NCBI RefSeq assembly: GCF_964204645.1
Contig: NC_134032.1
Coordinates: 4,798,175 to 4,862,174 of the forward strand
Source: Tubulanus polymorphus
Lineage: Eukaryota; Animalia; Nemertea
Reading direction: 5' to 3'
Length of the DNA stretch: 64,000 nucleotides
Of the stretch, positions 10,575 to 63,960 are shown one piece after another; within the stretch, counting starts at the first letter, position 1; every line of letters starts with the position of its first letter. Under the pieces are notes generated by a model. The model saw only the letters and a program-made list of their open reading frames with translations. It was not told the origin of the DNA and did not search any database. The position numbers and the translations under genes were made by a program.

Positions 10575-10589
10575 GATTCATGCAGTCTA

Positions 10590-22404: not shown

Positions 22405-22522
22405 TGCTGTGAGAAAGTGAGTAAATAAATTGAACCAGAGAAAAAATTGCATCTAGTAGAACGAACACGCTGACGAAGAATTTATGTGACCTTGACCTTC
22501 AATAGTGAAACTAAGTTGAAAA

Positions 22523-41599: not shown

Positions 41600-42289
41600 G
41601 TCAATGCGGACATATCACTTCGCGATTGATTAACCCTCTCATCCACCAGATAACTAACGAGAAAATGCAATAGAATAACTTTTTGGGCCATTAAATCACA
41701 AAGGTGAGGCAAAAAAGCTCATCCAGAGTTTAGGTTATAGTGCAAAGAATTACGCTCAAGCTCTGCAAGTACACACAATAATTGTGTAACTTCGGGGTTG
41801 CAGGTTCGCTCAGGGGACTCTGTTGCTTTGGTAGATTGTTTATGTATCTGTCACGAATTGTATCACTACCCTTAGTCAGCTTAATTACTGTTATAAATTA
41901 AGGAGTAGTGATCTGTTGGAGAAAGAATCACGCAGAGTTCCAACTGAAAAGTGGGCAAAATGGAATTATTTTGTACGAAATGTATCCAGAATGCATGAAG
42001 CTACGTTGTGATCTTCAGCGATTTCTTAAAGATTGTGTTGATTCTGAGTTTGGGCCATACGCTATTCCGTATAAATCTAGATCTCATACTGTAGATACAT
42101 TTCCAGGTAGAGCCAACTCTGTAAAACACACTACTATGATATTGTCAGGCAAAATCGTTTATGCTATAACTGTTTATAATATATCTATAATATGTTTATC
42201 TATAATCCCAGTCATGTCGTTGCTAAATGTCCATCTGCTATCGTTTGTAAGATAAGAGGCTGCGGTAGAAGACATCACACTAGTTTGTA
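41600..42289 (+). pseudogene. Decayed BEL/Pao gag, left part of the element interrupted by the Polinton
   Basis: KGEAKKLIQSLGYSAKNYAQAL, RLCYNC and HVVAKC...CKIRGCGRRHHTSL, reading in frame into 62957 onward once the Polinton is removed. Confidence 0.7.
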
Positions 42290-42382
42290 AGTAATTGGAA
42301 AAGTAGGCTTTCATACCAGAGGACGAGAGGACGAGACACCACTCATCACCACAAGTAATTTTTTTTCCTAATAAATGGGAGA
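42290..42382 (+). repeat. Polinton left TIR
   Basis: Reverse complement of 62865-62956 with 2 substitutions and 1 indel. Confidence 0.95.
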
Positions 42383-42701
42383 TAGAAAAGCATTCTTAGC
42401 TACAATAAATAACAGAATTAAACCAGCAAAAAAACAATTTGAAATAAAAAAGTTAGTTGATGTTACAAAAGAAATTGAACATAAAATATTGAAATTAGAA
42501 AAGATAAAAACTAAATATGGAGAGAAAGTATCAGCGAATTTAAGCTACTGTAATGTTAGTACATCGCGAGAATTTAAAGTGTTTTTACCTGATCAATGGG
42601 TTTCATTGAGTACAGAGGAATTAAAAGATTTAGAAGGATTTAAAATAATCTATCATGGGAAAAATGAAGACGGTCATCATGATTTAGAAATTGTTGATTA
42701 A
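42375..42701 (+). CDS. Polinton hypothetical protein, 108 aa
   Basis: Intact ORF whose ATG lies in the TAAATG motif at the inner edge of the TIR. Confidence 0.7.
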   Translation: MGDRKAFLATINNRIKPAKKQFEIKKLVDVTKEIEHKILKLEKIKTKYGEKVSANLSYCNVSTSREFKVFLPDQWVSLSTEELKDLEGFKIIYHGKNEDGHHDLEIVD

Positions 42702-43893
42702 ATAAGAAATAAAAATAATGAATATCTAGAATCCAAAATGACCTTAGTCGTTTTATAAACAACTACAATCATACAGTCAAACATCTGTTACATGTTATTA
42801 TAAGAGAGTGCTTCATTTGAATATTGATCAATCAAACAGGTGTTGCACAACGTTGTTGTTATATTGGATAGCTAGCAGCTATATAATAAGCACGCAGTAC
42901 ATACAACACACACCAGTACATACAACACACACAGGACAGGACAGGAGGATAGTCATTCTCTCTCGTGATTAAAAGGAATATTTCAATATTTTTACGGTAA
43001 GTTTTAGCAAAACCACCCGACTTGACTCGCAGAGTTTTTAGGGGATAAGCATCCCGTTATTGAGAGGCGCCACGAGATACCTATCCCCAAGCATTTCTAC
43101 TTACACCCCTGTGACCCACACCACGCCAATTCTCCTTCAATATTTGACAGGGAACACATTATATTAAAGGCGCTTTATGCATTTCCTATCAACCCCTTAC
43201 CCCCGAAAGGAGGATCGAAAGTCGAAACTGAAGGAGAACCACGGAGGGTGGACAAAGGTGCATTTTCGAAATGCCCCTGCAAGCCAAGCCCGGCGGCACT
43301 CCAGTGGTTGAATGAATTGCCTGATATACTTAGCTAAAACACCTGAGTAAATGTTGTTGGTGCTTAAAAAATATATGAAATTTGAAATTATGAATTATTC
43401 CGAATGAAAAGAATATGAGAATGAAAACTGATAAATGAATTATGGATTTTTAACTTAATTATGATATAATTTTTAATCAAATTAGTAATCGATTACCATG
43501 TTAATTGATTAACAAATTCAAATTCAAATATTCATTTTAGCATCACACCCCAACCAGTGCTGCCATCTTTCAATTTAAGATACAACTAATAATAAGAAAC
43601 GACTGTAATACAATATTCAAGTAAAAACAAAATAAATTAATAAAAATAATGAATATCTAGAATCCGAAATGACTTATCTGGACAATTTAATTGCTCCGCA
43701 TAGATAGACAAAAGTAGTGAGATGGTGCCGTACGGAACCCACATGGCGATATTCAATTATTTTTTTTGCTTTTTTTCTAAAATATTAATCCATTTTTTTT
43801 CATTGTCAGTTTTGGAATTTCAGAAGTATTTTCATTTTTGATAGCAGTTGTTTCAGAATTATGAATATCATGAATTTTATCTGATTTCTTATA

Positions 43894-44139
43894 CTAATTA
43901 CACCCAATCAAAATGAATACAATTACAAATCCAACTGTAAAATATAAATGATTATCAAATATTCTATTATCAGCAGGAGTAGAAATAACAATATTTTCAC
44001 CATTTTTATTAACATTTTTACTACTTATTTTTTCTTTTACAGCTTTTTTATATTCTTGTGATTCAATTCCTAATTGCCGAGACCATTCAATTTGTTTCTG
44101 TGATCTCGGTTTTTTCTTCACTTCTTCCACCTTGTTCAT
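43894..44139 (-). CDS. Polinton small protein with a transmembrane segment
   Basis: TAAATG start; hydrophobic C-terminus; may be truncated. Confidence 0.55.
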   Translation of the reverse strand: MNKVEEVKKKPRSQKQIEWSRQLGIESQEYKKAVKEKISSKNVNKNGENIVISTPADNRIFDNHLYFTVGFVIVFILIGCN

Positions 44140-44677
44140 TTATTATAGAAATATTTTTACCTGCAATATTTGAAAATGTTATAACCCCAGTTGATAATAA
44201 TGTCATAAATCCACCTAATTGAAATGATAAATATCCAATCCATTTATTTAATTCAGTCATAACTAAATAATCATTTTTTAAATCGGAATATAATCTATTT
44301 TCATCTTCAATTGGTAGTATATAATTACATAATTTACTATAACCTTTTACTACGTTTTCTGATATCGCGTCATCAATTCTAGCTGTTCTCGCGGCTTCAT
44401 AAATCTTAAATAATCTAATAATTTCATCTGATTTCATTGTATCTAATTCATTATATGTTAAATTTTTACCGACAAAATTTTTACATTTTCCAGATGCTAT
44501 TAATATTTCTAATTGATGTTTACAATAAAGATAATATTCATAATTATTATTTGTTGTAACATTATTTAAAGCACCATCATCTGGAATTAATTTGTTTTCT
44601 GTTATTCCTAAATCATCTAAAGTTTTTTCAATTGGAACATCACCATTTTTAGATTTTATTTTCTTTTCACCTACCAT
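44087..44677 (-). CDS. Polinton hypothetical protein, 196 aa
   Basis: Intact ORF, TAAATG start, hydrophobic stretch near the C-terminus. Confidence 0.7.
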   Translation of the reverse strand: MVGEKKIKSKNGDVPIEKTLDDLGITENKLIPDDGALNNVTTNNNYEYYLYCKHQLEILIASGKCKNFVGKNLTYNELDTMKSDEIIRLFKIYEAARTARIDDAISENVVKGYSKLCNYILPIEDENRLYSDLKNDYLVMTELNKWIGYLSFQLGGFMTLLSTGVITFSNIAGKNISIINEQGGRSEEKTEITETN

Positions 44678-44699
44678 TTATATAACAAAAAAATTAGTT

Positions 44700-44970
44700 G
44701 TGATGTTGCAACTAGAATTTAAATAGAATGTAACTAGAATTCAACTAGATTAACAAGCTAGTTGAAATATTGTTGTTTTTGTTTATTTCTTGTTAAATCT
44801 AGTTGATTTTTGTTCCAACTACCAATAACTAGAATTCAACTAGAATGTAACTAGAATTAAACTAGATTAACAAGCTAGTTAAAATATTGTTAAATCTAGT
44901 TGATTTTTGTTACAACTACCAATAACTAGAATTCAACTAGAATTCAATTAGATTAACAAGCTAGTTGAAT
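44700..44970. repeat. Internal tandem/inverted repeat array (CAACTAGAAT / CTAGTTG)
   Basis: 11-bp units in direct and inverted orientation within a higher-order ~100-bp duplication. Confidence 0.85.
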
Positions 44971-45582
44971 TTAAATAAATTCATATTTAAATGGGTGTTG
45001 TAATCTAAATAGTAATTTTGATCTTTTAATATTTTTCAACTTATCCATATATTCATTACGTAAATCATGTGGAATAATATCATTTTCCTCAAGTGCATTT
45101 TTCATCGATTTTTCTATCTTTATTGAAGAATAAAACTAGAAATCTTATATTCTCCCTAAAGTCTTTAACAATTGAATTATATTTTTGATTTAAAACCCAA
45201 GTTGTTATCCCAAAATGTCTCCCAGAGAAAGCTAAATAACATAACTCACTTTCTCTAACTTTTGAATCATGTAAATTTGCGCAATCATCTATGATAAATA
45301 ATGTATTTGATCCTTTATAAATATCAATTGCTATTTTTATACAATTATCTAAATTTTCTTTTACTGTTTTAAGATCTAATATAATAAATTTATTATTTCT
45401 AGTAATATTTCTATCATAAGTTTGATTAAATTCATATGTTGGACAAAATAATACTATATTATCAAAATAGTTTTTTTATAAACAGTTTCTAATAAATTTA
45501 ATATAAAATAAGTTTTTCCACAATTTGTTACACCAGAAATTAACATATTATGAGGCTCAAATATGAATAATTCCTTATTCAT
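44971..45582 (-). pseudogene. A32/FtsK-like DNA packaging ATPase (frameshifted; not in the ORF track)
   Basis: Manual translation: Walker A ISGVTNCGKT, Walker B LFIIDD, SGRH motif, WVLNQ. Confidence 0.85.
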
Positions 45583-48500
45583 TTATATATTTTTAATTTT
45601 ACTTGATAATATCCATTCATTGAATTTATCTGGCCATCCAACCCATTTTACTAAAGAATATTTTTTTCTTTTAATAGTTTTTGTTTTTAATACTTTTTCA
45701 ATTTTAAATTCTTGTTCTAGATTTTCAGTAGTTAAACTCAATTCTTCTTCATAAAAATACCCATCAACTTCTTCACCATCTAAATCTTCTAATTTATAGA
45801 CATATGGTTTTGTTGTTATTACCTTTTTTATTTTATATATTTTATATATTATTTATATTTTAAAATTTCGATCGTATCCTTTATCGAATATCTTTTTATA
45901 CTTAGATATTCTAACATTTTGGCCAACTTTAAATTTAGGGTCACCAAAATCATCTACAAGAAATGCACCATAAAAATTATTCCAAACAATTTCAGCATTT
46001 TCAGGTTTTCTAGCATCAATAGGTTTCATTCCAATAGAAGAATGATAAGAATTATTATATCCTTCTATCAATTTTGGTAAAACATCAATCCATTTCAAAG
46101 TATTATTTGCTGTAAAATATTTCCACATTATTTGTTCTTAATGTTCTATTAAATCTTTCAACAACTGCCGCTTTTTTATCCGATTTTGTTGAAAAATATT
46201 TAATATTATGATTATCTAAGAGTTCATGAACAAGTGAATTATCAAACTCTTTTCCATCATCAAATTGTATTTTTTCTGGTTTTAGTTTATCATCCGAAAG
46301 AAATTTTTTTAAAACATTTGATGTTTGTACAGCATTTTTTCTATAAAGTGGGAAACTCCATACATAACGACTAAAAATATCAATTATATTCAATAACCAC
46401 CAATAATCATCATTATCTTTCTTAACATTTTTCATATCAATTAAATCTCCTTGCCACTGTTGATCTACATAACTTACCATAGTTCACGAAGGTACAGAGC
46501 CGCAACTTTCAGCGACTTTGACACCAAACACGTGAACTATCTAGGTGCGCGAATGTTGTTATGACGTCATAATACTCTAAATAAAAAACACCGCGCGGTC
46601 TCGCGATACGCGCGTGGAAGGATCTAAAATCTATTCTGCGATGTATTTTAAATAATATTTATAAAAGAATCCATTTAAAGACTATAATTAACATATAAAA
46701 CATAAAATTAATTGAAAGCAACATCGCTGGAAGATTAGTTTTAAAAATTTGATGTCAATCATCAATTACCGCTAGTCAAAATGGCGCCCGTCATGATAAA
46801 CAAGACGGAGAATTTTCTTTAACTGACTGGATCTGGTATAAAATGTAGTATTTCACATCACAAATGGCCCAAGTCCGTTTAAAAGAATAACTGTACCGCA
46901 CTCAAGGCACCAAGGTTGGAATATGGCTATGGATCATGACAAAATAGTGCGCTACGACCGATAAAATATCAGCTGTCGGTACTCGGTCATGCCATGTGGT
47001 ACAGGCCTACTACTACTCTTCTGTCGCATGGAATCGGAACCTGATTCCCGAAGCAGCCAAGGTCCTAACGAGAAGAATAAACGAAACAAATGTAAGTATC
47101 CTGCACTCAATTCTACGGTGTCTAATTATCTTCAAGTGTCTACTCCATCCACACTTTAATGTAGTCTACAAAAACATGGACAAGCAATACTTTAGTAGAT
47201 TAGGTTCTCATCAAACAATCTACTGGGGGTTGAGTGTACGTGTAGGTAGTGTACTCACTGCTACTTATCTTATTTTTAGGAAACATTTTTGACAGACCAC
47301 CTATCTACTAGTGAATGATTTTTCGAGGACCCGAAAAGTAGGCCTAGGCCTCTTAGAGTCGTAAGACGGTAGGCTATTCATGTCATTTATTTACATAACT
47401 ATGAAGTCTTGAAATAAATTTCCACATGCAATTTTTTTATTTCAAAGGCAATGTTTTTTTTTTTCAGAGAGTTCAACCGGTTACAGGAACCCGAACAATG
47501 CTAATTTAGAGGTCAACTTGTGACTAGATAAGCCAGGTTTACAGGATTGGAGATGATAAAGAGTGAGTAGGCCTCACTGACTGAATGGTAAATACATCAT
47601 CTGTAGTCATCGCTGCTGTATTGAATCATTTAACTTTCAGCAATCAATTGATTTTTTTGTTTGCTTTTATTCATCTTTAGTTGATGCAGATATCAAGTAC
47701 AAGGGCATGAAGTTGAATCTTTAAACTGGGGATTGTCAAGATTTTACTTGTTTCCATCTTTTCACTTTGATGTTTGAATAAATCTAAACATATAAAAGAG
47801 CTTTTTCTTATGCGTATTCTTGAAGTCGTGAATTCCTATTCATTCCTACTAACAGAAGAAAATAAGAGAAGCTTCGTCTACACTTGCATCTTATACCGAG
47901 GTTATGCGTCTACACTAAGCTCGAAACACGGGTTGAATGCAAAAAGCCAGGTTTTTGAAAAAGGAGTTATATAACCTATTGAGAATTGAACCTATGTTCA
48001 CGAAAAACTCTACAGATGTGGATTCAGTTACTGGAGCTAAATTAAGTGTAGATGCAGCCCTGCAAACGCTGGTTTTTTTATGAACCCGCATACTTTGAAA
48101 CCCGGGTTCAACGAGCTGTGGACGTGGTAATATATATCGCAGTCAGAAAAAGAAGCAAATTGAAAGTACATCAATCTTTTATTTCCAACCTAAAACAATG
48201 AGACAGAAGGTTTGAATGCAACAAGCCATTTGAGCAATTGCGGTTACTAATTTGTAAAATGTATTGATATGATATGGAAGGCCAACTGCTGAATTCCATG
48301 GGTACCATCAGAACCAAATGCACGCTACTTGCCATCTACCTGAAATAAACAATTGTCAATATTATGTTATAAACAAATAAATATGAAAAAAATGCAAATT
48401 TCTGCTTGATACAACTTACATTTGAATGGGAAAAATCGGTTATAAAATATCTGCTATGTCTGACAAATAACTGACGAATCCTATAAAACAAAAAATATAT

Positions 48501-50006
48501 TATCTTTAAAATAAAATTAACAATTCAATGATTTTTGGCAATCTTCCAATACAATATACATAGGTCCCTAGTAGGCCTACGCTAACACTAACTGAGCCAG
48601 ACAACCTGATATCCATTCAAACAAAACTGAATTCGACATTAGATGTGAGATGCGTGAAAATGAGCCATAGGCTGGTTTTCCACGAGAAACAGATCAATCA
48701 AATTTATTTCCCTTTAGCCGTTTCCACAACAAGGGAGCGGCACTGTTGGACAGGACAGACACACATTTTCGAGTCTGTATTAATCAATTGTTTACTGTGA
48801 CTGCGCAGTAATTAGTCAGAATTTTCAGGGAAATCCCCTACAAAAATGGCCCCACCACCCGAAGACCTGCACACAAATTTCTGTGTCAGAGCCAAAATTG
48901 AGGTAACGCCTGCGCTTTTACGCCTTTCTTGTGGAAAATCCTAGTTTAGTCATATTACGCAACGAAATCAATATTTCCTTATGCCAAATGATTATTCTCA
49001 TAACAGTCTTTCATTTCAGGATTCAATAAGTCTCAGTATGTGGCACTAGTCCAATTACAATAATTTTCGAATTTGGTCCGCAGTTTACGATTAGGCCTAA
49101 CTTGATGACGCAAATTCTAAGTCAACTCGTAATAGGGAGTACACATTCTATATTTCAAAATTGACAGGAGAACAAGATCTAATTACGTATGTTTTCAGAT
49201 TTCGAAAGAACCCAATTATATTCCAGTAAAAGTCATCAAAATTAATAAGGTAAAAACGCTAGCTCATAAAATTAGTTTTGAAGTAGTACGAGAAACTGGG
49301 AATATCTCACTTATTTCCAATGCCATATAGACATATAAGGTATCATTCGATTCGTTTCTAGATGGGTTTTAATACTATTGGGTATTTGGATGACTGAACT
49401 GTCTATTCTACCTTAAATTCTTCCAAAACTTTGAGATTTCGCAGGCCCAAAACCGGCAAAATGACAAAATTACTTCCTGGTTTTTAGCGCCGCCCTGAGA
49501 AATTAATATGGCGAAAGTTGAGAAAACTGGAACATAGCTAAACGCTAAAACACGTATAATTTCGTTTTAGATATGTTTCGGTTCGAATCCCAAATACTTA
49601 ATACCTTAAAACGTGACATAAGTCCGGGTGCCGTTCCGTATTCATTCAACACGCGCGCTCAACCGCGAAGCTATTTTTAGCGCAACAATCAATTTAACCA
49701 ATAGAGACGCGCTACGTCATAACGTTCGACATGGTCGCATTTGCCTTTACTCGTACTGTCGTGAGTTTTACGAGTTTTATATTTTCTAACAATTTTTTTA
49801 TGTGTTGTATATGTTGGTTGTTCTAGCATAAATTCATTTATATCTTTATATTTAACTAAATTGTGTGGGATTATCTTATCTAATTTATCTTGTTTTACTT
49901 TACTCCATATATTTTTGGTAGAAGAATAAGCAACCGAACTCTCAGGGTTGTAATATAAATTTCTTAAATATTGTTCTTTAGTATTAGGAGTTTTTTTACC
50001 TCCCAT
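45583..50006 (-). pseudogene. Retroviral-like (rve) integrase with a C-terminal chromodomain, split by the 46485-49763 insertion
   Basis: LYYNP N-terminus (49764-50006) joins in frame as RKT|MVSYVDQQWQGDLIDM. Also IDIFSRY, QFDDGKEF, VVERFNRTL and chromo LVKWVGWPDKFNEW. Confidence 0.92.
46485..49763. mobile_element. Non-autonomous Chapaev-like DNA transposon
   Basis: CACGA...TCGTG termini with imperfect TIR, 4-bp TSD AGTT (46481-46484; 49764-49767); removal restores the integrase frame. Confidence 0.85.
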
Positions 50007-50036
50007 TTATATATCCTGAATTTTAACTTTATATTT

Positions 50037-51285
50037 CTAATATTGAATACTATCTAATTGTGAATTTACAATATTTAATTGCGCATCAGATATAATATAA
50101 ATATGCGTTTTGAAATTTAAGCTTCCTTCTTTCTTTTTCATTAATAATTGTATTCCATCTTTAGTGTTCTGTAGTTTTTTTTCCAGAACCATGTAATGAA
50201 TTATCCTCTGTTGTTCTAAAATCTAACCATAATGCGTATCTATTGCCGGTATAATAATCAATTTGATTAATATTACAATTTTCAAATGATTTTACTTTTT
50301 CATTCATAACATGTTTTCTAATTTCTGGCCACTGATCAATCATTCTCATTCCTTGACAAAATATTTTATTTGCTATTCCTTCGATAGTTATTTCTACTTT
50401 TGTTATTTCAGGATTATAATAATTATCTACCTTTATTGCGCCATTAGAATATGTTACAATGGTAAAAAATATTAATATGCCTTTAATAGATCTTCTTGGG
50501 AAGTTAATATTCTCATTAATTATTTCATCATTTGCATTAATAGTTACAGTTTTAAATTTATCAATATAATCATATAATAATGAAAATCCTTGATTGTATT
50601 GAGTTTGAATTGTGCTAGCAATATTTTCATTAGTTACTGTGTTATATTCTAAACATATATTCGATAATTTATAACCCATATCTTTAACAACGCTAGATGA
50701 TAAAATTTCATTTACAGGAGCAAATGTTATCTCAAATATAATATTTTCTTGAATTACATATTTATACGAAGGTGCATTATTATTTATCAATTCATAGTCT
50801 AATGGAATTTTATATTTGCTTCCATAAATCTTTTTAATCAAATTATCTGTGGCACGAGTTACTATTGTGTCATTAGCTCCCGATCTTAATTTATTATGGT
50901 TTTTCGATTGAATGCCCTGAAATATCATATTATTTCTATTTTCTTTAGTTAACCATACATCTTTATAATGCATAAATAAATTATAATCATCTAATGAGAA
51001 AACTGTTTCTGGACCAATCTTTATTGTTAACTTTTTAATCAAATATCTCCCAACATTATCGACAACATAATTATTATCATGACCTGTTACTTTTATATCG
51101 GCTGATAAATAAATACTATTTGGAACATAAAAAGTGTTTTGTGTTAATCTAGGAATTCAAACATATAAAGTTTCATCCGAATTAATATTTGAAGGATTAT
51201 GAGTAATTATATGATGTGATCTTTCTGCTTTAATAGCATTAGATATTCTAGAAATCTTAGAAGGACTTATGTAACTCCCACTCAT
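50037..51285 (-). pseudogene. Major capsid protein (double jelly-roll, putative)
   Basis: ~415 codons from the TAAATG start at 51285 with one stop and one frameshift; beta-rich pattern; size and position fit a Polinton MCP. Confidence 0.7.
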
Positions 51286-51305
51286 TTATTTAACAAAAAA
51301 ATTAA

Positions 51306-52750
51306 TTATTTATTTTTTATTATTTTTTCCTGATATCTTTTTGATATCATATTCACTAACCCAAAAATAATAGCACTTACAACTGTAATTAAAAATAAGA
51401 TAATATGTTCAGCAGCAAAATTAAGAATATTCCCAGCAGATTTCAATATAAAACCAACAATTGATGCAATAATTCCTGGTAAAGCTGCAGCAGATTTTTT
51501 AGATAGTTCCCATAAATATTTTGCTAATTTCTTTAAACCATCTTTAACTTTATATTGTATTGAATTATTACCTGGGGGTTTATCCGGTTTATTGGGAGTA
51601 GGAGTAGATTTTAAAGAATTTGATATTGCTAAACCAATTGTTGTAAATAACATAGTAACAGCTGTTAGAATTGAAAGAATTGTTATTCCTTCTAATTTAA
51701 ATAATAATTTTATTCTATCTTTCAAGGATAAGTCAGAATTTGGTTTTATTCACAAATCTTTAAAAATAACTTTTAATCTATTAATATTATAATCATATGA
51801 TTTTAATAATAATTTAATTTCTTCTTTTTTAATTCTATGTTATATTCTAAATCATCAATTTCTTTTTCTAAATATGCATTTCTTTTTTTAAATTCAATTT
51901 CTTCAATAACTTTATTATCTCTATCTAATTTTAATTGTTCTATTTCTTTAATTTTATCAGTTCTGTCTTTTTCCAAAGTTCTAATTTTAAAATCTCTTAT
52001 ACTTTTATCATGCGCAATTTTATCAGATGCATTTCTTATGCTAATAATCTCTCTAATTGCTTTATCAAAAAATATATCTAAATCCTCTAGTTGTTGATCT
52101 GTTGCATCAATTAATCCATTCGGTAAAAGTTTTTCAATTGGAACTTTATTTGATTTAAGTTTACTAGTTTTGGAAGTTATATTTTGTTCAGAAGTTGTTT
52201 CTGTTTCTGATTTCTTTTTGATTATTTCAAATAATTCATTAATTCTTTGTTTATATACGTCTATATTATCATCTATTTCTTTTTGTGTAACATCAGTTAT
52301 TTCATTACTATTACTTAATATTTTAATTCTATCTGGTTTTAATTTTTCTAAAGTTGATTCTGATAATATTCTATTTTTATAAGTGATATCAATATAATTA
52401 TCACCTTTCAAACGATAATAACATTTACCATTATCTAAAAATTTTAATTGATCTGCTAAAAGTCCAACGTCTTCATCATTTATGTTAAGTTTAGATTTTT
52501 CAATTAAATCTTCTAATTTAGGTATTTTGTTTAAATTATCTAAATCTTGTTTTACTAAATCTGGGTCTAAATTTTCAGGATTTAATTGTGATTCTGCATT
52601 TTTAATATAATCAGGCATATTTAAATTATTATTATATTCTGGCTCATTACCGTCATTAAAACTTGTTTCATCAAAATCAGGTGGTTGTTCATCACTTATA
52701 CCAGGTTCATCAAAAGGATCCATTCCAATATCTTCACCTTCTACATCCAT
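51306..52750 (-). pseudogene. Acidic/coiled-coil protein with C-terminal membrane helices
   Basis: ORFs 51803..52750 and 51306..51725 are colinear and only the first has a TAAATG start. Confidence 0.6.
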
Positions 52751-52978
52751 TTATATAATAAAAAATTAAAATTTAAAATATAATATTCCTCCTATAACAA
52801 TTCCTATACAAGTTAAAGCTAATTTAGTATTTTCATGGGATTTATTATCATAATAAGTTTTAATTATATCATGCTGAATATTATCAGTTTAAATATTTTC
52901 TGTAGTATTGTAATCTTTTATTTTGGAATCATTATTTAATTTAATATTCTTAGTTTTAGTTTCTGTTGATTGAATGTG

Positions 52979-54174
52979 TTATTTATTTTTTTCGCCTTCC
53001 ATTAATTTTGGAGCAGTAATAATCTTTTTATTTATATCATTTAACCCAAATGAATTATTTATTGTTGCAGTTTTAATTAGATTATTATAACCAATTATAT
53101 TTCCCATCTTTAATACTAAATCATTAGAAATAATTAATAGATTAGGGCCTATACAATAATTTAATCTTATATGTGATTTATCTAAATAATTTTGATATCT
53201 TACAATGTTTTCTGGAATCGATCTATTTTTATCATTATGAATAGAATCTTCAAATAATACTTTGAATTGTTTCTGTGTATCAAATGATGTATTTAAATTT
53301 CCAATTACTGGGGATCTTGTTTCAACTTGCGCACCTAAAATACATATCAAATGAGTTCTAATAGATTGATTTATTCTTTGTATACCTGATTTTGTAAAAC
53401 CTTCATTATTTTCTAAAATGAAATAAACCCAACCATTATTGTTTTCTTGTTTTAAATCATCATAACATTTCGGTAATTTATTGAAATTTAATGTTTCTAA
53501 ATCCTTTGTTTCTATTTTACCATAACCTAATTCATTATTATAGATATTATAAAAACTATGAGATGGTATGGGAAGTGCACAATATTCTGCAATCTTTTTA
53601 GGGCAAGGAAGTGATCTTATTGTTCCAATTTTCGTTCTAAAATCAGAATTATTTATATCTATATTAAATTCCTTACAAATTTTATAAACCTTTGATAAAT
53701 TAATATTATTATCTAATTCTTTAAAATATCTAGATCCTGGTAAAGCACACTCTAATTCATTTAATATTATTCTTATTTGAAAGTATGTATGAAATCTAAA
53801 TAAACTTTGAATTAATTTATATTTAGAATTATTCAAATGATCATTCCAACTTATACCACATCCTGGGGTTGCACAATAAACAGCAAAATTTAATTGGTTC
53901 TGCCAATACTTCATATTAGATTTTAATAACCATTGTTTTTCATCTTTCAATTTTTTAAAATTAATTAAATATACATGAAATATATTTTCCATCTTTGCAT
54001 TAAAATTATAAGTTTCAGTAACATAAATTTCTAAATTAGTTAATGAATCTATAACTTCATCATTTCTATATGTAATATCTTTATTAAAATCTATTGCTGG
54101 AATATTATATTTAATTGATTTATTATATTGGAAAGCTTTTGGAAAACTATCTACCAAGCTTTTGGAAACCCCAT
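52979..54174 (-). CDS. Polinton hypothetical protein (~400 aa)
   Basis: Long ORF; likely true start at TAAATG 54174, disturbed by a short duplication; C-terminus probably continues to ~52770 via frameshifts. Confidence 0.65.
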
Positions 54175-54190
54175 TTATATAATTAAAAAA

Positions 54191-54616
54191 TTAATAATTT
54201 ATTAATTCTTTTAATAATTTATCTTGTTCTTCAACTGTTATATGACCATTTAAACTTATGATATAATCTAGTATGTTCTTTAATTTATTAATTTCTTTTA
54301 TATTAGTTTTAATTTTTTCTTTATTACTTTTTATATCTAATTTTGAACTTATACCAGTTAAAACACTTGAACTTAATCCTAATACACCAATTGATATAGC
54401 TAAAGGTGTTAATGGACTGAATATTGCTAGAAATGTTATTACAGAACTAATTGTAACCGAACCACTTATAATCAAATAATATATAATTTTAGATTTTAAA
54501 TATTTTTTCTTTTTAACTTTTAAGTCACTTTCAAATTCTAATATTTGTTTTTCTCAATATATTTTTAATTTAGTTTTATTTATATCATGAGGAATAATAT
54601 CAATATTATCTTCCAT
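54191..54616 (-). pseudogene. Small two-TM / coiled-coil protein
   Basis: TAAATG start at 54616 is in frame with ORF 54191..54475; one internal stop. Confidence 0.55.
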
Positions 54617-54635
54617 TTATTTAGAAAAAAAATTA

Positions 54636-55058
54636 CTAATTAGTAAACTTATAAGCAACAAATATAACAATAACAGTTCCGCCTAAAATCCAAATTATTT
54701 CATATTTCTGTTGTTCTTTACTTGGGGTATAATAATCTGATAATTTAGGTTTGTATAGATGTAATTTTTCTTTAATTGTTACTGCGTTATATAAACTCAT
54801 TGCATCATCAACTGATTGAAAATCTCTATGTGAAATCTTCTGATCATATAATTCTTTGCTAATATAATCCATATAGTTTCGCCTCTTTTCTCTATATTCT
54901 TCTGCTGCTTTATTGTATTTCTCTAATGCTAAGTTATTTCTTCTTTGTTCTCCTAATGAACTATTTTTATCAATATGTTTAAATAAATATCCACCACCAG
55001 TAAATCCTAAAGCGTTAACAATTGCCCATCCTATAATATTTATATTTGCAGAAGCCAT
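54636..55058 (-). CDS. Polinton hypothetical protein, 140 aa, Gly-rich hydrophobic N-terminus and C-terminal TM
   Basis: Intact ORF with TAAATG start. Confidence 0.7.
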   Translation of the reverse strand: MASANINIIGWAIVNALGFTGGGYLFKHIDKNSSLGEQRRNNLALEKYNKAAEEYREKRRNYMDYISKELYDQKISHRDFQSVDDAMSLYNAVTIKEKLHLYKPKLSDYYTPSKEQQKYEIIWILGGTVIVIFVAYKFTN

Positions 55059-55082
55059 TTATTTAGTAAAATAATTACGCAT

Positions 55083-55303
55083 TTATATGGGAGGAATATA
55101 TTTTTGTTTTTCTAAATAATCAAAAGTTAAATTAGATAAAGTAACTGCTAACGTTAATTTTAAGATATCATTTATATCAAATCTATCAACATTAACACTT
55201 CCCATTTTAATACATTTTTTAATACCATTGAATAACATACAGTTCCAACTGATAGTAATGCGCCATTATATAATCCAGTTATTATCCACTTATTATCACT
55301 CAT
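55083..55303 (-). pseudogene. Small hydrophobic protein (~73 aa, one frameshift)
   Basis: TAAATG start at 55303; manual translation MSDNKWIITGLYNGALL...YLEKQKYIPPI. Confidence 0.5.
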
Positions 55304-55443
55304 TTATTAATCGAAAAAATTACTATCTTTAAAATATTTAGTTAACTTATTTACGATTAATTCAACATTTATTTCATTACTAGTTTCATTTGTATATATT
55401 TCAATTATTATTTTTTTAATATCATCGATGATAAAATCTTCAT

Positions 55444-55665
55444 TTAAACTAATTCATAAAATATTAAAGATTCTCTAAGTAAATTAGTAATCTTTTCTAC
55501 ATTTAAAGTTTCTTTATCTATTGTTGTTTTATACTCAAATGTTGTTTCATTAGAAAATGATATATTTTTGATATGTGTAATTACATCATTAATGTTAAAT
55601 TTCATTTCTTTCACACGTTTAAAATCAAATCCAAAACATATGCTCGGCCCAACAGTTATATTCAT
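55444..55665 (-). CDS. Polinton hypothetical protein
   Basis: TAAATG start; probably extended to ~55320 originally. Confidence 0.5.
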   Translation of the reverse strand: MNITVGPSICFGFDFKRVKEMKFNINDVITHIKNISFSNETTFEYKTTIDKETLNVEKITNLLRESLIFYELV

Positions 55666-55681
55666 TTATATAATGAAAAAA

Positions 55682-56444
55682 TTACTCTCTACATCTTATA
55701 ACTAATTCATAAATTACAGGAAAGTTATTCAAATCAATTAAATATCCATTATGATTTCTTATTTCTAATTTAAAATTATTAAAATGTGGAATACAAGGTT
55801 TAAAATCACATTCAGCTAAATTATAATTTATTTGCGTTCCAAATTGTTTAACATTTTTTAATGGTAAAATATTTAATATACTAGAATTACAAATTGTATC
55901 TTTAGTTGCTTCAAATGCTTTTGTAGGACCAATTAAATTGCAATAAATATAAAAATGTGTAAAAGGTATTATATTTGATATACATACCATATGTGTTTCT
56001 AGTCATAATACGCGGTTTAATTCCTAACATTTTAGCTATTGGTTTGTGTACCATAAATGCATGTTTGCGTTCATCATCTAACTTTATTTTAATTTTATTA
56101 GAACTATCACTTTTTATAAATCTAATTGAAAATTTATCTTCACTTTCAAGTTTTACTTGTGCTCTTCTATTAATTTCTTGGGCTAATGTTTCTAAATTAT
56201 ATAACCCTGGTTTTAAAAATAGATGAAACCATTTTCCTTTATCTTCATTAAAAATCAAAAAGACTCTATGTTCAAGAGTTTTATCCGATATATTGTAAAA
56301 TGAGTTACATAAACTTATATTTACTAATTTTAAATCTACACAATTCTTAAATTCTCTATCTAATTGTACTAGTAAATTATGTGATTTATAATTTGTAAGT
56401 TTTCTAGAATCAACAAATATTCTGTATTCTTTTAATTCTACCAT
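55682..56444 (-). pseudogene. Minor capsid (penton-like, single jelly-roll) protein
   Basis: Two overlapping ORFs; SFYNI, PGLYN, FYIYCNLI and NGYLIDLNNFPVIYEL motifs typical of Polinton minor capsids. Confidence 0.7.
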
Positions 56445-56512
56445 ATTTTATAACATAAAAAAATTACCGCTCATCACTAAAAATTAATTTTAATAAAATT
56501 TTTCCTAAATAA

Positions 56513-57740
56513 ATTGATGAGAAGATAGCATGCGAAATTTGTGGTGAACTTCTAAGAAAAAGTAATATGGCTCGACATATGAAAAAACATGATGAAAATT
56601 ATAAACCCCCTAAACTAAACTGCCCAAAATGTAATAAATTATTCACACGAAATTATGTTAAAAAACATTCAGAGAAGTGTAGAATTAATGGCACAACGGC
56701 TCATGTTGATAGTTATGAAAGTAATAGTAATTCTGCTGAAGTTGAACCTGAAGTTATTTGGAAAAGACCTTTCTTATTCTATGATAAGGATAATATAAAA
56801 GATCATTTCTGTGAGCCTCGTCGAATGAAATATAGCCCTGAAAATACAGAAGATTGGGAAAATCATCAATTTCGTAAAGCACATATAGATAAAATTTCTA
56901 ATAAATTTGAAACTGAATTCAATGAAAGAAAAGATAATTTATTAGAAAAAAATAAAATATGAGAAAACGTTACCAGATAATAAAGAAACAGTTGAAAAGT
57001 TAGAAAAACAATATAATGAATTAACAAGAAAAACATATTATTGTAAATATTGTAAATTGATTATTAGAACAAGTAATTCAAATCTACATAATAGAACAAT
57101 AAAACATAAAGAAAACGTAAGAAAATACCAAGAGCTTAATGAAGATCTATTACCAATAAATTATAAACAAAAATGCCCACAATGTAGTTATGCGACCTTA
57201 AGGCAAGAAGGTACTGTGTTATTTTGTAATGAATGTGGATGGCAAAAGAATTTATTGGGTGAAGAAAAAACTAGAAATTTTCACATAGATCCAAAATTAA
57301 ATTATCTTGATGAAATTTTTAAAATATTTTCTATAGAAGATCATACACCAGAATATATGCAATGGCTTGAAAAAATGAAAACTATAGAAAATAAAAATGG
57401 TGAAATAACAAAAAAAGATATTATAAAAACAATTATTCCGTCAACATTTAACACAAAACAAAAGAAAATGTATTTATATTTATTATTTAACGATTATTAT
57501 GAAAAACCTAAATTAACAGAAGAAGATATGAAAAATATAAAAAAAATATTCAAACAAATATTAATGTATTATTTGGAAAATAGAATAACAGATTCAATAA
57601 ATTATGAATTCTTTTTAAATAAGATTGTAAATTATTTAAACCTAGATATTATAATTCCATTTGATGAATTAACAAACAAAAAGAAACAAAGAGAGCGAGA
57701 TGATATGTGGAACAAGATAGAACAAGGAAGAAGAACCTAA
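56513..57740 (+). pseudogene. Zinc-finger protein fused to a poxvirus VLTF3 (A2L)-like late transcription factor domain
   Basis: Three C2H2/C2HC fingers, then CPQC-x11-CNECG, NYLDEIF, INYEFFLNKIV and KQRERDDMWNKI. Start apparently mutated (TAAATT at 56510-56515); frameshifts at ~56950-57010. Confidence 0.6.
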
Positions 57741-57803
57741 ACAATTAAATGAAAATGAAGAAGCCAATAGTGATTTCGAGTATGATAATATTGATTTTAT
57801 GTT

Positions 57804-60800
57804 TTAATAACCATAAGGTAATGTTTTTATACCATCATCTAAAATATGCCTTTTATCATCAAATGGATTTAAACTAGTTTTTTCAACTTCATTAATGTAC
57901 ATCTCGTGATCTTCTGATCTTAAACAATTCATTTTGTGTTTCATTACAATTGATTTATATAAACATTTTATATAATCTAGAAATTCTATATGTTTATCAA
58001 CCACATGTTTTGTTATTCCTTTTAACTTTTTAGCTTCATGATCTTTTGTTCTATAACTATACATTTTACTTCTTATCCCAACAAATTCAATCATTTCATC
58101 ACCCCCTAATTCATCTTTAAACTTACCAGGAATCTTTTTATTATCATTGCTAAATAGTTCATGATCTTTGGGATAATTGCTAAAATCAAAATGATGTTTT
58201 AATGTTTTTAAGTCTTTTGTTATATCATTTGTCTTGATTTTTAGTATGTAGGCGTCCGTATTTTTGGCTATTAATGGAAATCCACAGTTAAATGTACCAT
58301 CTTCAGTTGATAAATCATAAACATAATCTGTTGGGTTATATATTTCAAATAAATCCTTAACTTCTTCTGTTAACTCATTTTCTACATGGCTTAAATTAAA
58401 GCAATTTGGTTTAGATTTAATCAATCCAATATTCATATTAAAACCTAATTAATTACATAATATATTCAATCCTGATATAGCAACTTTTCCTTTTTGAGCT
58501 AAAGATATCGTTTTGCGGTTTTTGAAACTTTTTGAACAATCTGCAGCATAAAACCCAATGAAGAACCATTTTCTTAAATTATTTTTTGCATTTAATACAT
58601 AATCTGGTACTATCTTTTCTTTAGTTGAAGTATTACTTTTCACTATTGCATGAATATAGAATTCATCATTATATTTTATAGCAAAATCTTTAGGATTATT
58701 TACAAGTATTCTATAAACTGCTGTTGATTTCATATGATCCACGATGTTTTATGTGAATAAACTTCTTCACAGAATTTCTTTATTCTTTCTAATAATTTTA
58801 AGTTTTGATTGCATAAATACCAGCAATATTGAGTGCGATTAACATAATTATACACACCTGCTGAACCATCTCCCATGAAAAATCCTTTGATAAGATATTC
58901 TTTTTCTTCTAATGTTTCGGGTTCTATGTTATAAATATTATCAATTATTTCATCAAATGACATATGATTCATTCTTTGGAAAAATCTTTTATGTAATAAT
59001 TCATCTCCAATTTTTATATCAGTTGGTTTTATTTCATTACCATTTCGTTTAATTAAACTATGATCTTCTGTAACATCTACAAACCCTAATTTAGTTCTAA
59101 CTCTATAAATTTTCTTATTTGTTTTATGCCTAATAATATTCTTTAATTTTTTCCATCCATTTCTTGTCCAAATATCCATTAAACCATTTATTTGTATTAA
59201 TTCTTTTTCACCATATGAAATATAACATTCATTTTGTTTTGGAATTATTTCTGAAATTTTCTTATCAATATTTTATTATTCCATTTTAATAATATTGGGG
59301 TGTCAGCTGTTACAGAATCAAAATATAATATTTCAATATGCTTTTCCCCAAAAAGTGGTTGTAAAACATTATAATAAAAATCATACATTAATAATTTTGA
59401 TACTCCTAAAACAGTTGAACCAATGAATATAGGTTTATTAAATTTCATTGACGTTCTTTTTAATTTAACTGCTGTTAAATAATCTTCAAATCTTTTATTT
59501 CCTAAATGTCTAGGACTTGATTGTAGATGTCTTAATCTTTCAGAATTATTTACTAATTCAATATCATTTCTATTTCTAATATTTTCGCATGTTTTACCAT
59601 AAAAACTATTATTCATTAATTTGAAGAAATCTTTTTCAAAATCTGTTTTTGATATGGTTCTCTGTTGAGTATTGAAATCTATATATTTTTCTAACCACTT
59701 CGATTGATTAAATTCAATATATCTATGTACTTTCTTTAATTTCATTCTTTGTTTTAGATAAAATTTTAACATTCTATAATGAACAATATAATTGTATTTA
59801 TTATTTTGAGTAAGTATTAATTTTTCTGTAAAAACATGATCTTTCGGTTTTATTTTCTTCTGGTATTCACTTAAATAACTATCATCTACGGTTAAATGTT
59901 CTGGGCAATAAGGTAAGTTTCTTGTTTTAAACTTTATATTTTCAGGATATTCTAAATCAACTACAAAGAAATAACCAATTGGTGCTTCATCTTCTAAACT
60001 CATAATTGCGCTTTCCCAATTAGTTTTATCATCATTTTCAACTTCTGTTAATATAAAATTTTTATATGGTTGAGATTGCATCATTGCCCAACCATATAAA
60101 TTATTGGCGTCAATATATAATAATTTATATTCATCATTTGCTTTAAAATACCTATCTCCCATAACACCACTAATTCCACCTCTAATTGATTTTTTTTCAA
60201 ATAATAAAACCATATCTGGTTTTTTTAATAAATCTTATTCTACATTTGTATATTTTTAACCACATTGCCAGGTTAAACCAGGACTTGAATAACAATAACA
60301 AGGATCAAAATTAAAATGATTCAAATTAACTTCTCTAAATTTTTCAAATATGTCAGCCAATATCATAACATCGGATTTTAGATATAAATCAACTAATTCA
60401 CCATGATTTTTTATCTCAAAATGGTTCCAAATATTTAATGTTCTATTAAACACTTCATCTTTCACATACTCCTCTTTTAATTGATCATAAAATTGATCTT
60501 TTAATAATTCTGTTACATTAAAATCATTGTGTGTTTTATAAAATGAATAAGGAATTGCGCCTTTATATCTCAATAATTTAAAATCTTCGTCATTTGGATA
60601 ATAATATCGAGTTATTATAAAATCATTATCAACTAAACTTTTTTTGATAAATTATCTAATGAACTTGCTAGAAATCTATAAGAATCTAAAAATCTAATGC
60701 AACCAAATTGAAATGAAATATAATTTTCAGATGTTTTAGCTAATAGTTTAAAATCATATTCTCTTACATTTACACCATTCATAGCATTATATTCTTCTAT

Positions 60801-62872
60801 TTCTTGATTAATTGTACCCAATTTGTTTGGTAATTGTTTTATAAATAGATGGGTATCATAGCCTGATAAATTATGAAATAATATTGGTACGAAATTAACT
60901 TTCTTAGCTTGAATATTGCAATCTTCATCAGCAGCTCCACGATATTTTGAATTTAAATGATCGTGATCTCTAACTTTTTTATCAAATGAATAAAAACGTT
61001 TTTCACAATAACAACAATGAGTTGCATAATTAAAATCAATTTCATCTTCTTTTGTCATAACTATTTTTTTATTTTTGTTTAATAATTTTGCAAAATCACT
61101 TTCTAATTCAATCATTTTGTCACAAAAATCATTAACTACATCTTCACCTCTAAAAGAAATATATTGACTTTCATATAATTCGGGATAATTTGATTTTATA
61201 TAAATTCCATAAGGAGCAGCTCTTTGATGAACTTTTTAAATTGTATTTATAATTGGTGGGTCTTGTATTGTGTCTTCATTTAATTCATTTCCTTTATCCA
61301 TTGATTTTAATAATTGCTTTTTGTTATATATTTCTTTTCTATCTTGATCAGTTAATTCTTTATTCAACGATTCAAAATCCCCATAAATTACAAATGGAAC
61401 AATATTTTTAAATTCATGATTAGTAAATTTCAACTTACAATCTTTTTTTGTTGGCATTATTAATTTACAAAAATCTTTATTATGACATAATTCTTTATGT
61501 TTTAATAATGTATTCTCAGTCATAAATTTAGATAAACATTTTCTACATAGATAAATTTTATTATGGTGATCACTTACTGTTCTAAAGAATAAATCAATTT
61601 GTTTTAACCACATATAATGTTCATTTTCATCTTTTTTGTTATATAACAAATCTATAGCATTTTCATCATCATAATATTCTGTTAAATATAAAGCTTCCAA
61701 TGTATAATCTTTAATATTTTCACCTTTTGTCTTTGGTAATTGCATTAATTCGAATACATTTATTTTTAAATTATTAACTTTTTCTATTTTAGGAATCATT
61801 TTTTATAGTTACTGGATATTGATCAATTTTATATAATGTTTCATATTTCCGGTAATTTGTTATTCTAAAACTATGTGTCATATCTTCTGTTGGGTGTAAA
61901 CAACTAATAATTGACCATAGAAAACATTTATTATCTTCATTTTGAACATTTATTACTGCTTTTGTTGTAAATGGTAATTTAATATAAGATGATGCTTTAA
62001 TATCCTTTTCTGTTGTAAAGTTTGAATCATTTTTAAACATTTTATTACTTTTTGATGTTTTATTCCTTTTTGTATTGTAAACATTTAAATCTAAATATAT
62101 AATTTCATTCAATGTTAAGCCAGAACCCTCAAAATATCTTTCTTCAATACGACGTTTAAATACATTAAATATTTTTTCTAACTTCTTTTTTATTTGTGTT
62201 TTTGAAATTATTTCTTCAGAGAGTGTTTGAATATTATAATCCATTTTTTCTTCTGACTTTATAAAACTTACTTTCCCAGAGATACTAATTTTTGGATATT
62301 CAACATCTGTTATCAAATCTAGTATTTTTTCTATTATTTCATTAAATTTACAATAATCTTCTATTGTTGTACCTTTAAAAAATTTAAATATAATAGCTGC
62401 AGGACCAATTTTACTATGTAATGTTTCTAAAATTTCAATTGTATCTTTTATTTCTAATGAATCAATATAATTTCTAACATTTTCCATGTAAGGTTTATTT
62501 GAAATGGATTTAGTTTTTGAACTTGGTTTTTTTACTTTTTGAGATTTATCATCAAAATATTCTGATCCTAAAACATTTTTATTTAAATTTTTATAATGTT
62601 TTTGTGATTCGAGATGTCTATTATAATTCCTTTTTACTATAAATTCATTACAAACTTCACATTTTATTTCATCCACATTCATATTTTCTAATCTTTCTTT
62701 TCTTTCATTGGAATTATCTGGAGTTTCAAAATCTATTAGAATTTTTTATATGATTTGCAGTTTTTTCATGTCGTGTTTTATTAGATGTATCGATGTATTT
62801 TTTACAATATGTGCAATAATATTGATTTTTATTAACATTATTGTTTTCTGTCTGGTGTTCATTCTCTCCCAT
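57804..62872 (-). pseudogene. polB: Protein-primed family B DNA polymerase with N-terminal zinc fingers, an endonuclease VII-like insert and an intein
   Basis: ExoI YGDFES, ExoII FHNLSGYD, ExoIII YLKSDV, SIRGG, motif A YIDANNLYG, motif B KLMNNSFYGK, motif C YFD|TDA, KMY, KLKGI; multiple frameshifts. Confidence 0.93.
58260..59316 (-). mobile_element. Intein with a LAGLIDADG homing endonuclease in PolB motif C
   Basis: Block A SVTADTPI, block B VDVTEDHSL, block C LIKGFFMGDGS, block E FFIGFYAADCS, block F YVYDLST, block G IAKN followed by Thr+1; two frameshifts and one stop. Confidence 0.9.
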
Positions 62873-62956
62873 TTATTAGGAAAAAAATTACTTGTGGTGA
62901 TTAGTGGTGTCTCGTCCTCTCGTCCTCTCGTATGAAAGCCTACTTTTCCAATTACT
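62865..62956 (-). repeat. Polinton right TIR
   Basis: Reverse complement of 42290-42382. Confidence 0.95.
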
Positions 62957-63960
62957 TTTGTATAAATCAGATTTTAGGCAAAATATTGTCAAATCAAATT
63001 CAATGGAAGAAGTAGGTATTTTGAGCAACCACACGCGTAATTCATCAAATATCTATTTTCAGGTGATACCTGTTGCAGTGATCGGAAAGAATGGTCGCAC
63101 CGTCGCCACTCATGCGTTGCTGGATTCAGCTCTTGACATTAGCCTCATCAACGATGAATTAGCTCAAGAATTGGGTTTAAAGGGTAAGAAGCAAAGCCTT
63201 ACCATTAATACCCTGTCAACGAGCGTTACTGAAAACTCTCAATGTGTGTCGTTTAAACTGAGGGCTTTGAATGCTCCATGTACTAAATCTGATATACTAG
63301 TAGTGGGATCGGCGTATACAAAATCTGGTTCATTTCGATGCCAAACTCAGAATAAGGCTCTTTGTCAATCACAATTTAAACATTTGGAAGATTTGCCAAT
63401 TGCAGACGTCAATCGAAGTGAAGTAAAGATTTTAATTGGCGCTAATAATCCCCGTGCACATGTTCAGCTTGAAATTCGGGAAGGGCTCTCCGATCAACAA
63501 CCAGTGGGGATTCGAACCCCCCTAGGCTGGTGTATTTTGGGTTCATCATCGCTTTTGCTTACTGATTCATGTCAGACCATCGTAAACAATACTGACTCTG
63601 AAGAGTCATCTCTTGATAATTTAGTTGAACGTTTCTGAGTCATTTGGTGTGGCTTTTAAGGAGTCTAAAGGGTCTATCGATGATCAAAGGTGTGAAAAAA
63701 TTCTAAAAGAATCTACAAAACTCGTTGAGGGTCATTATGAAATAGGCATGTTATGGAAATCAGATGATTCTGTTTTTCCTGATGGTAGGAATTTGGCGTT
63801 AAGTCGATATAGAAATTAAGAGCGTAGGTTGAAAGGTTCCGAGGGTATGCTTCTAAGTTAACGGAGAGTGTGTTAGCGTTTTCAGGGTCACGGATTTGGT
63901 ATATTCCTCATCATTGTGTGCTGAACCTGAACAAACCAGGGAAAGTTCGAGTGGTTTTTG

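Follow-up and report, generated by a model that had tools for sequence, protein, structure and literature searches.

A dead Maverick/Polinton copy from Tubulanus polymorphus with an intein of homing type in its polymerase gene and predicted promoters of poxvirus late type

A 64,000-nucleotide stretch of Tubulanus polymorphus DNA (NCBI RefSeq assembly GCF_964204645.1, contig NC_134032.1, positions 4,798,175 to 4,862,174 of the forward strand; hereafter the window, numbered from its first letter) contains at positions 42290..62956 a dead copy of a real member of the Maverick/Polinton family. The element is unusual in two respects that can be separated: it has a mobile intein of homing type in the gene for its DNA polymerase B, a protein-primed enzyme (pPolB), and a poxvirus-type late wiring that combines predicted late-type promoters with a protein resembling the late transcription factor VLTF3 (poxvirus A2). 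This wiring suggests that intact members of the family could depend, like virophages, on an RNA polymerase provided by a co-infecting virus of poxvirus type, a reading that we judge to be evenly poised between right and wrong. The literature has so far debated from gene content whether animal Polintons are autonomous or virophages (PMC8097293, PMC11296320). A uniform poxvirus-late-type promoter together with an A2-like factor makes this question directly testable and predicts the kind of helper.

The original prediction named TAAATG starts as one of three independent nucleocytovirus-type traits. The hexamer alone was not enriched in the element (44 occurrences versus 36.4±6.0 in 200 shuffles), whereas a T-run combined with TAAATG was (10 versus 2.7±1.5, with a maximum of 7 in shuffles), and eight of the ten starts fixed by alignment to relatives lay within 36 nt of a TAAATG; the two exceptions were the altered start of the VLTF3-like gene and one gene with a longer N-terminus. 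First-ATG starts ended in TAAATG in 11/12 cases in close relatives versus 3/84 in other pPolB loci, with 4/28 in the giant-virus loci bearing the closest inteins, 11/151 in other viral loci and 74/106 in the positive control of 12 poxvirus late-gene loci. In a pooled set of 30 starts, 14 of which came from the window and were partly chosen by motif, 27 shared one layout, with T at -16 to -10, TAAAT at -3 to +1 and a spacer of about 6 nt. This layout matches that of the vaccinia late promoter as reviewed in PMC5294985, and the T-rich core, the 5-7 bp spacer and the TAAAT(G/A) overlapping the start that define poxvirus late promoters are all present in the sequence, which points to predicted poxvirus-late-type promoters on the element's genes. 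The same start type was found at pPolB, at the integrase gene and, in the closest relative (L022), at the VLTF3 gene, and one such start lies in each terminal inverted repeat (TIR). No separate early promoter class was seen, as pPolB and the VLTF3 gene share the late-type start, and stop-to-start gaps in intact relatives were -8 to 71 nt in six of seven cases.

Plain AT bias as the origin of TAAATG was ruled out by the shuffles, by AT-rich controls and by one relative of 44% GC (L068) with TAAATG at 3/4 starts, and stop-start overlap was ruled out for most genes, since the upstream stops lie at other positions. Depletion of TTTTTNT (observed/expected ratio 0.54) was rejected as a mark of early termination in the poxvirus manner, since T-runs of every kind are depleted and the same holds for other Polintons. 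In four more distant pPolB elements (L033, L043, L077 and L097) the gene starts are rich in TATATA, as they are in giant-virus loci L018-L021, which suggests that promoters are matched to different helpers in different lineages.

The VLTF3-like gene, the second of the three traits, is supported by a PF04947 match of 27.6 bits (cut-off 25) on a 127-aa open reading frame (ORF) of the window, with which the fold and Atlas searches agree. PF04947 did not match the longer 264-aa window frame or the homologue in L022, an intact protein of 697 aa in the same position with 46% identity across the VLTF3 domain. The Atlas search matched the L022 domain to VLTF3 at 0.95 with a low recognition score, and the window frame gave leads only (0.77-0.78). 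The fold model had a predicted local distance difference test score (pLDDT) of 68, one of five models being good. Foldseek against BFVD returned ten matches at E<=0.001, seven of them to named late transcription factors and the top one to cowpox virus VLTF3, at identities of 14-23%; against PDB there was no match at E<=0.001, and TFIIB chains headed the non-significant list. Likeness of the model to cyclin/TFIIB folds was weak (Z 5-6.8, root-mean-square deviation 3.6, 89 aligned residues; the bar of the tool is 8).

Comparison sets were assembled from both virus groups. A pattern of 10 codons taken from the window had matches in 117 viral loci; 38 of these were poxvirus A2 genes, and the other 79 lay in frames of at most 111 aa. 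The A2 set was thus collected by a motif of the query, the pattern's wildcards were picked with a poxvirus motif in mind, and a masking control was run. A word search for VLTF3 homologues found none among 542 candidates. The giant-virus set comprised nine sequences from 15 records searched; asfarviruses and most entomopoxviruses lay outside the sampling as a whole. A profile built from the two Polinton VLTF3 sequences scored 13 poxvirus A2 proteins at 18-46 bits and the nine giant-virus VLTF3s at zero or below. With the search motif masked and shuffled alignments as reference, mean z for poxvirus versus giant-virus sequences was 11.5 versus 5.7 for the window protein and 8.2 versus 3.5 for that of L022, against a pox-versus-giant baseline of 3.4. 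The Polinton VLTF3 therefore scores closer to poxvirus A2 than to the nine sampled giant-virus VLTF3s. The unrooted tree contained three deep, separate clades on long stems, indicating old kinship with poxvirus A2 and not recent capture.

The third trait, a pol-c type intein, was borne out. The intein is inserted in pPolB motif C at YFD|TD, the pol-c-equivalent position, begins with Ser, contains block B and two LAGLIDADG motifs and ends in Asn ahead of Thr, and LAGLIDADG_3 matched above cut-off in two intact relatives (P0016 and P0021). These are the sequence hallmarks of an intein with a homing endonuclease, whose splicing and cutting are predicted. The homologue searches yielded 15 out of 192 candidates and 128 out of 863, among which the best full-length matches were other pPolB inteins (P0016, 59%; P0021 and P0020, 45% each), followed by inteins of RNA-primed PolB at 38-40% identity; one member of the PolB intein set (P0032) was identical to a gene of a giant-virus bin, and most members of the family lie in giant-virus-type PolB genes. 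A quick tree of 104 rows grouped the 17 pPolB inteins in one clade (SH-aLRT 99), with giant-virus inteins adjoining (94). A careful tree of 55 endonuclease-bearing inteins, from which mini-inteins and near-duplicates were left out, supported the pPolB-intein clade at 94/91, slightly under the tool's threshold, and did not uphold a giant-virus sister group: the sister position was ambiguous, falling to inteins of giant-virus PolB or to others of uncertain origin (70/98).

The intein is patchily distributed among Polintons. At 76 related pPolB loci the site was empty in 63, held an intein in one and a non-intein gap in another, and was undecided in 11; the two exteins are joined directly in the empty alleles, which include L022 (84%) and the next four relatives. 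Endonuclease inserts in pPolB are reportedly treated by Jeong et al. (2023). An extein tree of 45 rows contained at least five changes of intein state, with the window copy nested among five empty rows, and four of the 15 members listed from a 121-member cluster covered the site, three of them full and one empty with the same flanks. The intein has also crossed between pPolB classes, that of P0016 and that of P0021, whose intein interrupts a pPolB of another class that BLAST does not match to the P0016 extein, and the same family occupies type II topoisomerase genes at QD|TD (P0025, P0063, P0067, P0079, P0090 and others), a second non-allelic jump. The intein probably entered pPolB once and then spread and was lost among Polintons. 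The original prediction took intein homing as a sign of co-replication with a helper; this step fails, because homing between Polinton copies explains the intein without it, given that its nearest kin are in Polintons and that its state changed at least five times. The intein would imply one ancient meeting with a large virus and says nothing of a present helper or of co-replication.

The identity of the element itself follows from the hallmarks of Polintons, namely pPolB, an RVE integrase, an A32-like packaging ATPase, TIRs of 93 bp (left) and 92 bp (right) with 2 mismatches and 1 gap, and a 6-bp target-site duplication (TSD), TTTGTA, at both ends. The predicted ends were thus confirmed, as were the packaging ATPase and the chromodomain integrase (Pox_A32, rve and Chromo matches). 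The core measures 16.4 kb at 23.6% GC, in a window of 32-41% GC. Read from left to right, the features are as follows.

42284..42289 (no strand): left TSD, TTTGTA.
42290..42382 (+): left TIR, 93 bp, holding the T-run/TAAATG start that opens the first gene.
42375..42701 (+): 108-aa gene of unassigned function, with a homologue in relatives L023 and L026.
42708..43673 (no strand): 0.9-kb non-coding segment, 36% GC, flanked by two 35-nt direct repeats.
43894..44677 (-): pair of conserved small genes (81 aa and 196 aa), each starting at a TAAATG; homologues in L024 and L038.
44710..44960 (no strand): degenerate intergenic tandem repeats.
45089..45582 (-): A32-like packaging ATPase, broken by a frameshift and a stop; Pox_A32 E 3.8e-7, above cut-off.
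45583..50006 (-): broken RVE integrase that has a chromodomain at its C-terminus and is divided by an insertion; rve E 4.3e-11, Chromo E 2.1e-5.
46485..49763 (no strand): secondary insertion, 3,279 bp, 37% GC, with a 4-bp TSD (AGTT) and inverted ends that are short and imperfect and start with CACGA.
50037..51285 (-): major capsid protein (MCP), one stop and one frameshift; 70% identity to intact P0136.
51306..52750 (-): gene in two open frames with a hydrophobic C-terminal part; no family match.
52770..54174 (-): conserved gene, broken; homologues in L068 and L057.
54191..55665 (-): four short genes, their starts of the T-run/TAAATG type.
55682..56444 (-): candidate gene for the penton (minor capsid) protein, lying in two frames; weak DUF5901 match.
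56510..57740 (+): zinc-finger protein with a zinc ribbon and a VLTF3 (poxvirus A2-like) domain at its end; frameshifted, start region altered.
57804..62872 (-): pPolB with several frameshifts and stops, starting at a TAAATG within the right TIR.
58260..59316 (-): intein, about 350 aa long and now in three frames, that occupies the pol-c-equivalent site and has a LAGLIDADG endonuclease.
62865..62956 (-): right TIR, 92 bp.
62957..62962 (no strand): right TSD, TTTGTA.

Of the two capsid genes foreseen, the MCP was supported, with 1059 homologues of about 415 aa each and a weak, sub-threshold Capsid_N match (E 0.006), and is likely, on its sequence, to be a double jelly-roll protein, although a PDB sequence search with it gave no match; the penton gene is a candidate only. 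pPolB matched PF03175 in pieces and was 48-83% identical to the intact pPolB of L022. The 35-nt repeats around the 0.9-kb segment are 97% alike and of unusual length for a target duplication, and the segment is either an insertion or an internal duplication. The 3,279-bp insertion is without long ORFs and is likely to be a non-autonomous DNA transposon. The conserved broken gene encodes a 416-aa protein whose fold model has low confidence (pLDDT 35); of the four short genes, one is weakly SLATT-like, one is a conserved 140-aa gene with homologues in six loci and two are unassigned. Beside pPolB, in the slot occupied by the VLTF3 gene in the window element and in L022, other relatives have an endonuclease VII/HNH-like gene (L024:4079-4846 and L068:920-1651, with similar ORFs in L023 and L026), making this an exchangeable cargo slot.

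No adenain-type cysteine protease was found by Pfam among the ORFs scanned, several of which are without assignment; this agrees with group 2 Polintons as described in the literature, and the element is most like a group 2 Polinton with a Beta-type PolB, as judged from published descriptions and not from a tree containing named references. The capsid/protease module of the virophage family had no match in Pfam, no virophage-specific profile being used. Among the element's ORFs we recognised no RNA polymerase or capping gene, though a polymerase subunit, like a protease, could hide among those unassigned, and no poxvirus A1 or G8 gene. Protein scans of viral contigs with MCP, pPolB and VLTF3 gave no close relative and one distant pPolB locus, and PDB sequence searches gave nothing relevant.

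The TIRs and TSD had been described as intact, which holds; the genes between them are not intact. Compared with intact relatives, frameshifts or stops interrupt pPolB, the intein, the MCP, integrase, ATPase and VLTF3 genes and one conserved uncharacterised gene. The window copy is dead and unable to be active, because these core genes are broken and its integrase, uninterrupted in L024, is split by the 3,279-bp insertion. Read depth was taken from a DNA run labelled as the same species, about 12% of which was read; the part of the element covered was 52001-62800, the left half lying outside, and there was no single-copy reference. Depth over this part was 166-1111, versus 20-28 on the right flank, a ratio that does not equal copy number as the flank itself may be repeated. 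At the right end 586 reads continued into varied DNA (agreement 0.35), and 800 of the 38,728 placed reads were at least 99% alike to the window copy. The high depth, the varied right-end DNA and the scarcity of near-identical reads therefore mark the window copy as one of many diverged copies. Depth within the intein (166-244) was below that of adjoining sequence (324-349), which hints at intein-free copies and at nothing firmer; among the 15 of 147 read joints listed, none skips the intein.

Elsewhere in the window, the right flank carries an aspartyl-protease ORF of retroelement type (63003-63638), so the Polinton likely inserted into the remnant of a long terminal repeat (LTR) retrotransposon. 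A nearly whole Pao/BEL-type LTR retrotransposon, broken up over several frames, lies at 22520-27733 (integrase zinc finger, DUF5641). At 19088-21657 and 30614-31390 there are long zinc-finger ORFs that had no Pfam match (first two tested) and that resemble the proteins of DNA transposons. A single-frame rhodopsin-family G-protein-coupled receptor gene lies at 9630-10577 on the reverse strand (7tm_1 E 2.8e-16); this gene and the Pao/BEL-type domains are the sequence features of the window that speak for an animal host.

A poxvirus-type polymerase acting in trans would best fit the family, which has a single class of promoter, of late type, starts that leave leaders no space, a factor like A2 and no polymerase that could be recognised. 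In the nucleus, integrated copies would stay silent; upon infection the late machinery of the helper would read all element genes simultaneously, and the element's A2-like factor would bias that machinery toward element promoters. pPolB would then copy the genome starting from the TIRs, the A32 ATPase would package it and new copies would be put into host DNA by the chromodomain integrase. As a probable passenger, the intein would have entered pPolB once from the PolB intein stock of large viruses and then homed between Polintons. Helper dependence, as the original prediction had proposed, is a fair hypothesis and one slightly favoured. Host protection would be a further step beyond it, and the window copy is unable to perform an antiviral role. 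A fuller scenario seems to us doubtful: a large endogenous virophage family in an animal would use, for all its genes, the late polymerase of an undiscovered poxvirus-like helper and divert it with the A2-like factor, infection would wake the family and curb the helper, and the intein would sweep through the polymerase genes within cells of the animal.

Several observations weigh against helper dependence. A helper would already supply A2, so an A2-like factor of the element's own fits autonomy as well, and the family is amplified in host DNA, which needs repeated germ-line access. Mriyaviruses carry VLTF3 but no RNA polymerase, and their replication is probably nuclear (PMC11253617). The Polinton VLTF3 pair is not nested in poxviruses, and path lengths are similar toward both sides, in a comparison that lacks asfarviruses and most entomopoxviruses and whose poxvirus set was drawn by a motif of the query. 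The test for poxvirus early terminators lacked specificity, and AATAAA counts set no group apart. The relatives used for comparison are metagenomic and not tied to named hosts.

A serious though less probable alternative is an autonomous nuclear family, in which host RNA polymerase II would act with the element's own TFIIB-like VLTF3, perhaps with host TATA-binding protein on a TATA-like core, factor and promoter having been captured together long ago. Retention of VLTF3 by the polymerase-less, probably nuclear mriyaviruses argues for this, as do the weak resemblance of the VLTF3 model to cyclin/TFIIB folds with TFIIB leading the non-significant Foldseek list, the deep separate branch of Polinton VLTF3, the high copy number with many insertion sites and the redundancy of A2 for a helper. 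It sits poorly with the single promoter, which, shared by the VLTF3 gene and pPolB, leaves no early class to start a cascade, and with the lack of space for a 5' leader at gene starts. AATAAA occurs about every 170 nt on the coding strands of close relatives without depletion (147 observed, 149.5 expected), which also counts against it; other AT-rich Polintons are the same, the observed/expected ratio being near 1 in all AT-rich groups.

Expression could also be supplied in trans by other endogenous elements, either sister Polintons or integrated large-virus genes for polymerase subunits, and not by an outside virus. This we consider unlikely. Four relatives (L023, L024, L026 and L068) with the same promoters have an endonuclease-type gene beside pPolB (checked for L024 and L068), and read depth across the VLTF3 gene is 249-279 versus 441-1111 over the structural block, both of which speak for it; but these contigs are partial and may hold VLTF3 elsewhere, depth at 85% likeness also drops with divergence, and no helper element of this kind was seen in the analysis of the window. 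The idea of a single mimivirus-like giant virus that is both today's helper and the donor of intein, VLTF3 and promoter alike is very improbable and for the sampled viruses largely refuted: the nearest non-Polinton inteins by identity (39-40%) do lie in giant-virus PolB, including the one identical to a giant-virus bin gene, but those viruses rarely start genes with TAAATG, their VLTF3s score poorly against that of Polintons, and the Polinton inteins form a patchy clade of their own. The intein and the VLTF3-like gene both have the nucleocytovirus affinity on which the original prediction had staked its case; they do not, with the promoters, act as three independent pointers to one such virus, since the intein's kin are in Polintons and promoter and VLTF3 point to poxvirus-type transcription.

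Part of this picture is already published. VLTF3 has been reported in coral polintoviruses (PMC11131425), although its homologues are stated to be undetectable outside the phylum in PMC11253617, and the virophage idea has been raised for Polinton-like viruses (PLVs) found in entomopoxvirus occlusion bodies (PMC11296320). Vertebrate endogenous Mavericks have been proposed as inducible antivirals (PMC8097293), the chromodomain is a noted adintovirus feature, adintoviruses have been recovered virion-like from baculovirus cultures (PMC8502044), and Polinton groups are defined in bioRxiv 10.64898/2026.06.19.733378 and PMC4028283. Inteins are known in endogenous viral polymerases of algae and protists (PMC10710043), and endonuclease inserts in pPolB have been suggested to derive from inteins (PMC11161782). 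The accessible parts of PMC12220804, PMC13768754, PMC3671162 and bioRxiv 10.1101/2024.03.23.586382 held nothing further on inteins in pPolB. Literature searches combining intein with Polinton or Maverick gave no account of a canonical Polinton intein, subscription papers being mostly outside them and survey supplements being places where inteins or motifs could be listed, and searches and listings for TAAATG with Polinton gave no account of such a promoter in Polintons. Within the literature searched, there appears to be no earlier account of a canonical intein of homing type moving among the polymerases of Polintons, one of them integrated in a likely animal genome.

Among known systems, the element shares with Maverick/Polintons (Polintoviricetes; adintoviruses) the pPolB, chromodomain RVE integrase, A32 ATPase, capsid gene, TIRs, 6-bp TSD and core of about 16.4 kb, and differs in its canonical Hint and LAGLIDADG pPolB intein, its uniform poxvirus-late-type starts and the lack of a detected cysteine protease. 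Like it, the entomopoxvirus-associated PLVs are Polinton-type animal elements, proposed as poxvirus hyperparasites, two of them in the mavpol2 capsid clade; unlike the window element, they were co-sequenced with their helper, and a term search of the accessible main text found no mention of VLTF, intein, TAAAT or promoter motifs (PMC11296320). Mavirus and other virophages (Lavidaviridae) have in common with it pPolB and RVE integrase, integration into nuclear genomes and one late-type promoter class, virophages sharing late promoters with their helper without a separate early class (PMC6428243). The element departs from mavirus in its Polinton-type capsid, the absence of a detected protease, its animal host and a motif of poxvirus and not CroV type; helper dependence and protection are shown for mavirus and would, for the window element, be inferred. 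Nucleocytovirus PolB pol-c inteins agree with its intein in the motif-C site, the initial Ser, the Asn before Thr, the LAGLIDADG endonuclease and 30-40% identity, but the host gene here is the protein-primed polymerase of an integrated element, and the Polinton clade spans two unlike pPolB classes. With poxvirus late transcription (A2/VLTF3 and TAAAT(G) promoters) the element has in common the zinc ribbon and VLTF3 core, shared motifs and promoter layout; its VLTF3 differs from poxvirus A2 in that the domain is fused behind extra zinc fingers, with 14-23% identity in fold matches and with A1, G8 and polymerase genes unrecognised beside it.

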